64,000 bases of DNA, from the NCBI RefSeq assembly GCF_053078305.1, contig NZ_CP166879.1; one strand, written 5' to 3'. The notes beneath the pieces are model-generated. The model made no database searches and had not been told where the DNA came from. It worked only from the letters and a program-made list of their open reading frames with translations. Positions 1,367-56,446 of the stretch are shown one piece after another (position 1 is the stretch's first letter; each line of letters starts with the position of its first letter). The position numbers and the translations under genes are program-made.

Positions 1367-1996
1367 TTACAATATTTGGGGCCAGGGATTGTTTTCCGCC
1401 AAATATCGCGTTGCAGAAAGTCGGCAAATAATTAACACTTTGTCTCCTTTAGTGAAAATTTTTCCTTCTTCAGGCTCCAGTAGTAAATAATGTATTTGGC
1501 CAAATTGATCGGTGAGTTTTCCTTCGCAGGGATTACCTGAAGTGGCTTGATGACCGGTAATTAATGCCATGCTACCAATATATTCTTCTTCTGTAATAGC
1601 TGAACTATGGTCGCGTGGAATCCAGGGCGCAACTATTTTACCGGTATAATGCACCGCAATAATCGTAAACAGTAAACTGACAGGAACCACGAACAGGTTC
1701 GACAGTGGTGATTGCCAGACCATGATGCAGGCATGCTGCAACAGGATGCCAATAAGACCAAAAAAACCAGCCAGCAAGCAGAGAACGACGAGAGCTGGCA
1801 ATCTTCCGATATTGAGATAATGAAGTGCCTGGCTAATATGACCTGTGGTTATGGAATCATAATGGTCAAGATGTGCATCAAGAGCACCGGAGAGCATGTG
1901 ACCGCAGATAAGCGCAAAAATTTCTAAAAGGCCGATCAACAGTACAAAGGAAATAGCGAAAAGATAAGGGGTATTATAGTCGGCGAATAAAATCAT
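1367..1996 (-). CDS. yqiJ: Inner-membrane protein YqiJ
   Basis: 209 aa ORF with several hydrophobic helices, immediately upstream of and co-oriented with yqiK; protein recognised from memory. Confidence 0.85.
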
Positions 1997-2264
1997 ATGT
2001 CACTCCAATGTCCATTTAGTGACGCAATATTTACTTTGGGATAGTTTCCTTGCTTACATTTATCTTTGTTAATAATAACACATGTTAGAGAAGTTCTGGA
2101 AGAGAAAGTCTTTTAATATGGTTTTTTATTTTTCACTAAAAAGTGTGATCGAGGACAATATATTTACGCACGTTATGTTTAAAGGCACTACACTGATTGG
2201 GGAATACTGAAATCAGAAAAAGCATATGGCCTTAAAAGGTATGCGATAACCGGAGGATGTGCTT

Positions 2265-2465
2265 ATGGATCATAGTCTTAATTCTTTAAATAATTTCGAT
2301 TTCCTGGCGCGTAGTTTTGCCAGAATGCACGCAGAAGGTCGCCCGGTCGATATTCTGGCCGTTACTGGTAACATGGATGAAGAACATAGAACCTGGTTTT
2401 GCGCACGTTATGCCTGGTATTGCCAACAGATGATGCAAACCAGAGAACTTGAATTAGAACACTGA
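2265..2465 (+). CDS. glgS: GlgS, small glycogen-synthesis/motility-associated protein
   Basis: ORF track 2259..2465; product [29 protein letters not shown]... recognised (66 aa from the second ATG). Confidence 0.9.
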
Positions 2466-2470
2466 TATTA

Positions 2471-2492
2471 CGGGCCGTCTGGCCCGTTTTTG
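2471..2492 (+). terminator. Intrinsic terminator after glgS
   Basis: GC hairpin cgggcc-gtct-ggcccg followed by TTTTT, 6 nt after the glgS stop. Confidence 0.6.
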
Positions 2493-2499
2493 TGTTGCT

Positions 2500-2799
2500 T
2501 TATTCTGCTTTATCAATAGGCGGGATAGCCGGAGGAGATTGAAGATCTGCTACCGAATTATTGCGCGCTTCCAGTTCACTGATGCGCTGCTCCAGTAACG
2601 CCAGTTTTTCACGAGTCCGTAACAGGACTTGCGTCTGTACGTCGAATTCTTCGCGGCTCACCAGATCGAGACGCGTCAGCTGCGCTTGTAGGGTTTGGCG
2701 GATTTTTTTCTCCACATCTTCCCCGAACTCCCTGATTCCTTTAGGCATTGATTCGTGAACCTGGCGAGCGATTTGCTCAATTTTTTTCGGGTCAATCAT
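2500..2799 (-). CDS. ubiK: Ubiquinone biosynthesis accessory factor UbiK (YqiC)
   Basis: ORF track 2500..2859; recognised protein starts at the internal Met [32 protein letters not shown]..., coiled-coil-like C-terminus. Confidence 0.85.
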
Positions 2800-2919
2800 T
2801 GTAGTTTCCCTGTACTGATAGGTGTTGAGTGCCATTGTAGTGCGATAAGGGTAAGTCATAAACCAGAATTATGTGAAGCTATGCGTTGCTGCCGCTAATC
2901 ATTAGCGTTATAGTGAATC

Positions 2920-3072
2920 CGCTTATTCTCAGGGCGGGGCGAAATTCCCCACCGGCGGTAAATCAACTCAGTTGAAAGCCCGCGAGCGCTTTGGGTGCGA
3001 ACTCAAAGGACAGCAGATCCGGTGTAATTCCGGGGCCGACGGTTAGAGTCCGGATGGGAGAGAGTAACGATT
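2920..3072 (+). promoter_or_regulatory. FMN riboswitch (RFN element) in the ribB leader
   Basis: Conserved RFN blocks visible: agggcggggcgaaattccccaccggcggtaaa ... cccgcgagcgc ... ggacagcagatccggtgtaattccggggccgacggttagagtccggatgggagag, about 100 nt upstream of the ribB ATG. Confidence 0.85.
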
Positions 3073-3174
3073 CTGTCGGGCATGGACCCGCTCACGTTAT
3101 TTTGGCTATATGCCGCCACTCCTAAGACTGCCCTGATTCTGGTAACCATAATTTTAGTGAGGTTTTTTTTTACC

Positions 3175-3828
3175 ATGAATCAGACGCTACTTTCCTCTTT
3201 TGGTACGCCTTTCGAACGTGTTGAAAATGCACTGGCTGCGCTGCGTGAAGGACGCGGTGTAATGGTGCTTGATGATGAAGACCGTGAAAACGAAGGTGAT
3301 ATGATCTTCCCGGCAGAAACCATGACTGTTGAGCAGATGGCGCTGACCATTCGCCACGGTAGCGGTATTGTTTGCCTGTGCATTACTGAAGATCGCCGTA
3401 AACAACTCGATCTGCCAATGATGGTAGAAAATAACACCAGCGCCTATGGCACCGGTTTTACCGTGACCATTGAAGCGGCTGAAGGTGTGACTACCGGTGT
3501 TTCTGCCGCTGACCGTATTACGACCGTTCGCGCAGCGATTGCCGATGGCGCAAAACCTTCTGATCTGAATCGCCCGGGCCACGTTTTCCCACTTCGCGCG
3601 CAGGCAGGTGGAGTACTGACGCGTGGCGGTCATACTGAAGCGACTATTGATCTGATGACGCTGGCAGGCTTTAAACCGGCTGGTGTGCTGTGTGAGCTGA
3701 CTAATGACGATGGCACGATGGCGCGTGCACCAGAGTGTATTGAGTTTGCCAATAAACACAACATGGCGCTCGTGACTATTGAAGACCTGGTGGCATACCG
3801 TCAGGCACATGAGCGTAAAGCCAGCTGA
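3175..3828 (+). CDS. ribB: 3,4-dihydroxy-2-butanone 4-phosphate synthase
   Basis: 217 aa from ATG at 3175 ([48 protein letters not shown]...); the ORF-track upstream extension from 3082 overlaps the riboswitch and is rejected. Confidence 0.95.
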
Positions 3829-54863: not shown

Positions 54864-56156
54864 ATGAGCAAAGGAACGACCAGCCAGGATGCCCCGTTCG
54901 GGACATTATTGGGCTACGCCCCAGGTGGGGTAGCAATCTACTCTTCAGATTACAGTTCTCTCGATCCGCAGGAATACGAAGATGACGCCGTATTCCGTAG
55001 CTATATCGACGACGAATATATGGGCCACAAATGGCAATGCGTTGAATTTGCTCGCCGTTTTCTCTTTCTGAACTACGGTGTGGTCTTCACTGACGTGGGT
55101 ATGGCGTGGGAGATTTTCTCGCTGCGCTTCCTGCGTGAAGTGGTTAATGACAACATCCTGCCATTGCAGGCATTTCCTAACGGCTCGCCGCGTGCGCCGG
55201 TCGCGGGTGCGCTTCTTATCTGGGATAAAGGCGGTGAATTTAAAGACACTGGCCATGTCGCCATCATTACCCAATTGCATGGCAACAAAGTCCGTATTGC
55301 GGAACAGAACGTGATTCATTCCCCGTTGCCGCAAGGGCAACAGTGGACGCGCGAACTGGAGATGGTGGTCGAAAACGGCTGCTATACCCTTAAAGACACT
55401 TTTGATGACACCACCATTCTGGGCTGGATGATCCAGACGGAAGATACTGAATACAGCTTACCGCAGCCGGAAATTGCAGGCGAGCTGCTGAAAATCAGCG
55501 GAGCGCGTCTGGAAAACAAAGGCCAGTTTGACGGTAAATGGCTGGATGAACTGGGCTGGGATGCTGCCGGGCAACTGATTGATGGGGAAGGACGGCTGGT
55601 TAACTGCGTGTGGAAAACCTGGGCGTGGGAAACCGCGTTTGATCAGATTCGTGAAGTTAGCGACCGTGAGTTTGCTGCGGTGCCAATCCGTACCGGTCAT
55701 CCGCAAAACGAAGTGCGTCTTATCGACGTATTGCTGCGCCCGGAAGTGCTGGTCTTTGAGCCGCTGTGGACGGTGATCCCCGGCAACAAAGCGATTCTGC
55801 CGATCCTCTGGTCGCTGTTCCCGCACCATCGTTACCTGCTGGATACCGATTTCACTGTTAATGATGAATTGGTGAAAACAGGTTACGCAGTGAAACCGAT
55901 CGCCGGTCGCTGTGGTAGCAATATCGACCTGGTCAGCCATCATGAAGAAGTGCTGGACAAAACTAGCGGTAAATTTGCCGAGCAGAAAAACATCTATCAG
56001 CAACTGTGGTGTTTGCCGAAAGTGGACGGTAAATACATTCAGGTATGTACCTTCACCGTTGGCGGCAACTACGGTGGGACGTGTTTGCGCGGTGATGAAT
56101 CACTGGTTATTAAAAAAGAGAGTGATATTGAACCGTTAATTGTGGTGAAAGAGTAA
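54864..56156 (+). CDS. gss: Glutathionylspermidine synthetase/amidase, short in-frame-deleted allele (430 aa instead of about 619): amidase domain intact, N-terminal half of synthetase domain missing
   Basis: N-terminus MSKGTTSQDAPFGTLLGYAPGG... with CHAP-type amidase Cys/His (HKWQCVEF, TGHVAIIT); C-terminal 130 aa align to the YgiC C-terminus, but only about 105 aa separate the amidase domain from that block versus about 256 aa before it in YgiC. Confidence 0.8.
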   Translation: MSKGTTSQDAPFGTLLGYAPGGVAIYSSDYSSLDPQEYEDDAVFRSYIDDEYMGHKWQCVEFARRFLFLNYGVVFTDVGMAWEIFSLRFLREVVNDNILPLQAFPNGSPRAPVAGALLIWDKGGEFKDTGHVAIITQLHGNKVRIAEQNVIHSPLPQGQQWTRELEMVVENGCYTLKDTFDDTTILGWMIQTEDTEYSLPQPEIAGELLKISGARLENKGQFDGKWLDELGWDAAGQLIDGEGRLVNCVWKTWAWETAFDQIREVSDREFAAVPIRTGHPQNEVRLIDVLLRPEVLVFEPLWTVIPGNKAILPILWSLFPHHRYLLDTDFTVNDELVKTGYAVKPIAGRCGSNIDLVSHHEEVLDKTSGKFAEQKNIYQQLWCLPKVDGKYIQVCTFTVGGNYGGTCLRGDESLVIKKESDIEPLIVVKE

Positions 56157-56208: not shown

Positions 56209-56446
56209 TAATCAAATATTCAATATTTATATATTCAAATATTTATTCATTTCATATGTGAATACATTAACCAGCAGAATGCCTGTGTTCTAATTATTTC
56301 TAAAGATTTTTAATGAATGCTTATTGTCTGATACACAAGAAATAACACTCTTTTTATCGTTAAAAAATGATATTTCACTTTGCCCACACCGTTAAAGTCA
56401 CTGATAATGCGTCCGTTCGTAAATTCAAAATGGCGTAATCTAATAT

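Follow-up and report, generated by a model that had tools for sequence, protein, structure and literature searches.

The gss locus and its neighbourhood

The window, i.e. the whole stretch of 64,000 nucleotides analysed here, carries metC, exbBD, the hyb operon, yghU, gss, pitB, yghT and yghS in an order that is collinear with other E. coli genomes save for a gap within gss. Positions 1-24 kb match in a single piece, and in the 40-64 kb portion the gss gap is the sole break: the best megablast matches of the locus among 5,426 complete E. coli genomes are split in two pieces. The window is identical to contig JPQG01000001.1 across the 7.3 kb compared, and the genome in question (JPQG00000000) belongs to E. 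coli strain 48, which was isolated from a roe deer, produces Shiga toxin and is subAB2-3-positive (PMC5323612). Positions 1-24000, which include the parE-tolC-qseC region, reach up to 99.7% identity to several complete genomes, while positions 40000-64000 reach at most 99.2%, to strains that are in part different ones; this suggests that the ancestry along the window is a mosaic.

The gss gene occupies its orthologous position between yghU and pitB. The intact allele used for comparison is that of strain 100181 (listed as L001), in which gss spans 1665-3524 and encodes WP_001295514.1. The divergently transcribed yghU (53793-54707, minus strand) encodes a glutathione-dependent disulfide-bond oxidoreductase and is intact, with 288 annotated residues or 304 if the reading frame is extended to a GTG; it differs from its counterpart in strain 100181 at three nucleotides (54525, 54540 and 54543). 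The 156-bp intergenic region that follows (54708-54863, plus strand for gss), with the gss promoter and ribosome-binding site, is unchanged, as no difference from strain 100181 is found over 54544-54863. On the other side of the gene, in an A/T-rich stretch between gss and pitB, the window is one A short at 56214 relative to strain 100181; this single-base indel accounts for the span of 568 nt, instead of 567 nt, that the first BLAST comparison returned.

The gss reading frame itself (54864-56156, plus strand, stop codon included) starts with an ATG at 54864, ends with a stop codon at 56154-56156 and encodes 430 residues; with the in-frame GTG at 54861 as the start, the count would be 431. Its length is 1,293 bp, as opposed to 1,860 bp for the intact gene. 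A search against PDB sequences aligns the product with E. coli Gss (PDB 2IO7, 619 residues) in two blocks, each 100% identical: query residues 1-229 correspond to Gss 1-229, and residues ~227-430 to Gss ~416-619. When residues 230-418 are taken out of WP_001295514.1, the window protein results exactly, with zero other amino-acid changes. Between the retained 1,293 nt and the strain 100181 allele 3 nt differ, all of them synonymous. The product encoded in the window lacks residues 230-418, and the identification of this Δ(230-418) allele draws on the list of open reading frames, on the exact identity to intact Gss minus the block, and on the presence of the exact protein in public records. The first-pass annotation, made from the letters of the DNA, had set an ORF of 430-431 residues against the 619 of E. 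coli Gss, and the alignment to PDB 2IO7 bears this out, the reference being the longer protein and residues 230-418 being absent from the ORF. The loss is in frame as it had proposed, at exactly 567 bp or 189 codons instead of about 188 (a 161-nt junction query spans 728 nt in the reference). The C-terminus that it had described as intact is so indeed, over 201 residues (419-619) rather than 130. Its argument from the spacing of a conserved block shared with the paralogue YgiC holds roughly, with YgiC 263-392 aligning to query residues 297-427.

The deletion junction and the distribution of the allele

The junction lies at 55540-55550 (plus strand), where a single copy of an 11-bp direct repeat, GGCTGGATGAA, survives; left- and right-anchored comparison with intact gss and an enumeration of exact repeats locate it there. 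In the intact gene the repeat is found at gene nt 677-687, encoding ...W-L-D-E..., and again at 1244-1254, encoding ...G-L-D-E..., with a spacing of 567 nt that preserves the frame. Identity to intact gss extends through gene nt 687 when anchored on the left and begins at nt 677 of the truncated gene when anchored on the right, so that the two matches overlap by 11 nt; nothing is inserted between them, neither an IS element nor foreign DNA, and the resulting junction sequence reads CAGTTTGACGGTAAATGGCTGGATGAACTGGGCTGGGATGCTG. The allele displays what is expected of a deletion between short repeats, namely an ancestral repeat at both breakpoints of which one copy is left, and the junction is as seamless as slippage would leave it. 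The earlier placement of the junction near 55550 was accurate, and the short direct repeat suspected there, CTGGATGAA, is contained in the 11-bp GGCTGGATGAA and present at both breakpoints. No exact direct repeat within gss is longer than GGCTGGATGAA, which at least one other equals in length. An 11-bp repeat by itself is expected by chance, since 56 of 200 shuffles of the 1.86-kb gene had a longest repeat of 11 nt or more; it counts as evidence because it is located at both breakpoints, and only on that ground. A search of gss for inverted repeats able to juxtapose the direct repeats returned no convincing pair: those seen are one pair of 9 nt, of which one arm lies beyond the deletion, and two imperfect pairs inside it.

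Intact gss holds a three-copy family of this repeat. The third copy, GGGCTGGATGA, lies upstream at 55421-55431 (plus strand; gene nt 558-568, a match of 10-11 nt within the codons for ...LGWMI...) and is still present. The truncated gene has accordingly kept GGCTGGATGA twice, at 55421-55431 and 55540-55550, ~119 bp apart, and a new slippage between these two remaining copies would be out of frame.

To judge from this scar, the two exact 11-bp copies of GGCTGGATGAA, 567 bp apart, would have misaligned in the E. coli strain 48 lineage, and the misalignment would have cost gss 567 bp while keeping one repeat copy and leaving the reading frame open, by a RecA-independent route of short-repeat or replication-slippage deletion. 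That the deletion is real and private to the strain, that it arose in the strain 48 lineage by slippage between the 11-bp repeats, and that it entails the loss of the synthetase, is in our view highly probable as a whole. The obvious challenge is that the strain has a full-length gss from which 567 bp were dropped during sequencing or assembly. The uniqueness of the allele against 5,426 complete genomes and its absence from metagenome records speak for such an artefact, as does the fact that the second record of the allele may not be independent of the first. However, a repeat of 11 bp is far shorter than an assembler k-mer or read overlap and should not make an assembly collapse, the source contig measures 1.76 Mb and is otherwise collinear with other E. 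coli, and an exact in-frame loss at a repeat resembles a biological deletion. Moreover, the identical protein is found with the same neighbours on a second record, a contig of 5.94 Mb, so that the allele is known from two records, possibly of the same source, and not from a single assembly. An artefact is most improbable on these grounds.

A gss match is found by megablast in 5,415 of the 5,426 complete E. coli genomes, and the survey of gss length that the first-pass annotation had called for places the long locus in 5,413 of them. A 43-nt junction probe, neither half of which is able to seed megablast alone, has no match in any of the same 5,426 genomes, and an exact 35-nt junction pattern has none among 241 million metagenome records. 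At NCBI the exact 430-residue protein is represented by KFD77722.1, WP_044186420.1 and YBJ03857.1, which form a one-member cluster at 90% identity, and it is encoded on two contigs only, JPQG01000001.1 (GCA_000736735.1, locus JD73_00875) and the 5.94-Mb contig (YBJ03857.1); the latter may come from renewed assembly of the same strain or of the same data. Of the 120 protein clusters that best match the query, this one alone has a length of ~430 residues, and nearly all the others have 619-623. The allele is apparently unique to one strain or lineage.

The opposite polarity, in which the short form is ancestral or a normal alternative and the 619-residue reference carries an insertion, has nothing in its favour but the existence of the ORF. 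The long form prevails in 5,413 of 5,426 E. coli genomes, the block carries catalytic residues, and it is conserved in the homologues of Klebsiella, Enterobacter, Cedecea, Brenneria, Lelliottia and Superficieibacter, which measure 619-624 residues. Distribution and conservation rule out the short Gss as the ancestral form, and the chance that it is one is negligible. A further variant accepts the deletion as real and has it arise in laboratory culture of the sequenced stock instead of in the wild roe-deer population. The private nature of the allele, the lack of secondary decay in gss and the dispensability of the gene in culture are all compatible with such an origin. On the other hand, no positive evidence points to it and the allele is also on a second record, though that record may derive from the same stock; we consider a laboratory origin unlikely.

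Other singleton Gss variants with in-frame deletions occur in public data, lacking residues 302-373, 421-443, 127-176 (within the amidase domain) or 245-345, and a fifth combines an insertion with a deletion (the variants are listed as P0002, P0003, P0007, P0029 and P0076). Some of them may be artefacts of metagenome assembly. Sporadic internal damage to gss is not unique to strain 48.

Domains and ligands lost and retained

The N-terminal amidase domain and the linker are untouched. The coding region of the amidase (CHAP) domain, residues 1-195 (54864-55448, plus strand), specifies a sequence 100% identical to PDB 3A2Z and 2IO7, and the Pfam CHAP core (residues 52-149, nt 55017-55310, E=2e-10) is unchanged. 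The TGC codon for Cys59, the amidase nucleophile (PMC6272389), is kept at 55038-55040 on the plus strand, as both the reading of the sequence and a residue check attest, and His131 accompanies it; truncated Gss holds a CHAP amidase with its catalytic pair. The earlier claim of an intact amidase domain was well founded.

The synthetase domain has fared differently. Its C-terminal 201 residues (Gss 419-619; 55551-56153, plus strand) are kept, with 100% identity to Gss 416-619. The Pfam GSP_synth match, which covers model positions 26-370 in intact Gss, is reduced to 192-370, and a complete domain is no longer present, in agreement with the earlier view that the N-terminal half of the synthetase domain is missing. 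On the NCBIfam equivalog model NF007801 the truncated protein reaches 862.8 bits, just below the cut-off of 882, and the intact one 1282; the shortfall explains the generic name 'glutathionylspermidine synthase family protein' given by NCBI. The structure of the Leishmania enzyme LmTSA provides the subdomain framework, with subdomain A at 216-393 and 595-633, B at 394-511 and C at 514-595 (PMC2427367); E. coli numbers run ~12-17 lower than those of LmTSA. By this analogy the deletion would strip subdomain A of most of its N-terminal part, together with the first portion of B, and would not coincide with a discrete module. The part that is kept would comprise the remainder of ATP-grasp subdomain B, subdomain C and, from subdomain A, the C-terminal strands.

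Seven residues that bind triphosphate and Mg in LmTSA are strictly conserved with the E. coli enzyme (R328, D330, E344, N346, K513, K548 and R613 in Leishmania numbering), and the glutathione ligands of the latter are S335, D387, E392, A443 and T446, with C338 also discussed (PMC2427367). Spermidine binding and catalysis involve E391, S337, D387, D389 and E392 (Lin et al. review, PMC6272389). Block 230-418 takes away R316, D318, E330, N332, S335, S337, C338, D387, D389, E391 and E392, and C59, H131, T441, K498, K533 and D610 are kept. The deleted block accounts for four of the seven conserved residues that bind triphosphate and Mg, and for most of those that bind glutathione and spermidine; the Mg/ATP and glutathione/spermidine residues by which a bifunctional Gss is recognised are missing, those tested all lying within 230-418. 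The block is conserved to the same degree as the remaining protein (62% of its positions are invariant across 29 Enterobacterales homologues) and is under purifying selection elsewhere. AlphaFold2 runs without templates returned a mean pLDDT of 36.7 for truncated Gss and 41.0 for the intact control, a protein that has been crystallised and yet is predicted equally poorly from the shallow alignment of 29 homologues. These are near-identical to Gss (82-91% identity), and a shallow alignment of this kind makes for uninformative models.

Functional consequences and comparison with known systems

Because the lost block holds the Mg/ATP and glutathione/spermidine residues and is conserved, its removal can safely be expected to abolish synthetase activity. 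Strain 48 would then make no glutathionylspermidine (Gsp), because Gss is the only known Gsp synthetase and YgiC has been reported not to have Gsp-making activity (Sui et al. 2012, as cited in PMC12506659). The first-pass annotation had envisaged an amidase without synthetase that could deplete Gsp. This is not supported, since without the synthetase there should be no Gsp pool to deplete and the amidase would be left without substrate. A better wording would be that the strain has no glutathionylspermidine at all and an orphan amidase, orphan because Gsp and Gsp-thiolated proteins, its known substrates, both require the very synthetase that is destroyed.

Transcription and translation of the truncated gene probably continue, given that the region upstream is identical to that of the intact allele. 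The isolated amidase domain of Gss folds and works autonomously, and is reported to be 10-fold more active when freed from the synthetase domain (PMC6272389) or up to 70-fold more active when separated from it (PMC2427367). By the same token the N-terminal domain of the truncated protein may still fold and be active, and an active amidase is plausible if the protein survives with its 201-residue incomplete ATP-grasp remnant.

A rival reading is that of a selected neo-allele, a stable, deregulated amidase-only enzyme that is kept for its usefulness, be it the cleavage of other γ-glutamyl-cysteinyl-glycyl amides, action on thiolated proteins or the draining of Gsp. The frame is preserved, the 430 retained residues are free of substitutions, the upstream region is intact, and the amidase gains 10- to 70-fold in activity when isolated from the full-length enzyme, all of which fits. 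However, the known substrates require the destroyed synthetase, with YgiC reported not to make Gsp. The allele is limited to one strain or lineage, and three synonymous and zero non-synonymous differences are too few to demonstrate selection. A preserved frame carries little weight either, as a random deletion has a one-in-three chance of being in frame and the 567-bp repeat spacing is in frame by construction, and the other singleton in-frame gss deletions, one of them within the amidase domain, point to sporadic damage. Selection for such an enzyme is very unlikely. Equally slim is the chance that a stable 430-residue product acts as a constitutively hyperactive CHAP amidase, released from inhibition by the synthetase, on a physiological substrate other than endogenous Gsp, for instance other glutathione amides or conjugates, or thiolated proteins. 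If true, strain 48 would be a natural 'amidase-only' experiment on the purpose of the Gss amidase.

Damage without benefit, the reading preferred here, agrees with what is known of the gene. K-12 Δgss behaves like the wild type in H2O2 sensitivity, and an effect is seen only in combination with glutaredoxin loss. The Δ(230-418) allele would act physiologically as a gss null, which is nearly silent in K-12, and the deletion would be recent or neutral, with no further decay. A near-neutral allele is to be expected because Δgss has little phenotype, and this fits a private mutation without decay; the allele is probably neutral. Overall, the allele is an ordinary case of lost function in a gene that is known and dispensable, in one STEC strain, and its importance is small, the gene being non-essential and the allele private. 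Within these bounds strain 48 would be a natural Gsp-synthetase-null STEC that keeps the amidase domain, and a possible control for studies of Gsp-dependent S-thiolation. Its gss locus is a clean textbook case of an 11-bp-repeat deletion, and users of this genome as a reference should expect a defective gss.

In terms of mechanism, the closest parallels are the classic lacI deletion spectra, in which spontaneous deletions arise between short direct repeats by RecA-independent slipped mispairing. Like these, the gss loss is bounded by a repeat of which one copy is kept, is free of filler and IS DNA and amounts to a few hundred base pairs, and no mechanistic difference from the lacI-type deletions is apparent. 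In terms of the protein, the natural yardstick is E. coli Gss, or GspSA (619 residues; PDB 2IO7 and 3O98; NF007801). The locus, from the hyb operon through yghU and gss to pitB, is the same, residues 1-229 and 419-619 are 100% identical, and the CHAP domain with Cys59 and His131 is intact. Unlike Gss, the strain 48 allele is devoid of residues 230-418, and with them of the N-terminal part of ATP-grasp subdomain A, the start of subdomain B and ligands for Mg/ATP, glutathione and spermidine. The engineered Gsp amidase fragment (Gss 1-197; PDB 3A2Y and 3A2Z) resembles the allele in that the whole autonomously folding amidase domain is present in both. It differs in that the amidase of the allele remains joined to the linker, to a stub of 24 residues and to 201 residues of an ATP-grasp domain that is incomplete; this remnant may misfold, aggregate or be degraded. 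The ATP-grasp paralogues YgiC and YjfC (PDB 7UK8 and 7UK6) have the C-terminal ATP-grasp region in common with the truncated protein. In contrast to it, these paralogues are whole ATP-grasp proteins that lack an amidase domain, and they are reported not to make Gsp. They neither explain nor compensate for the gss allele.
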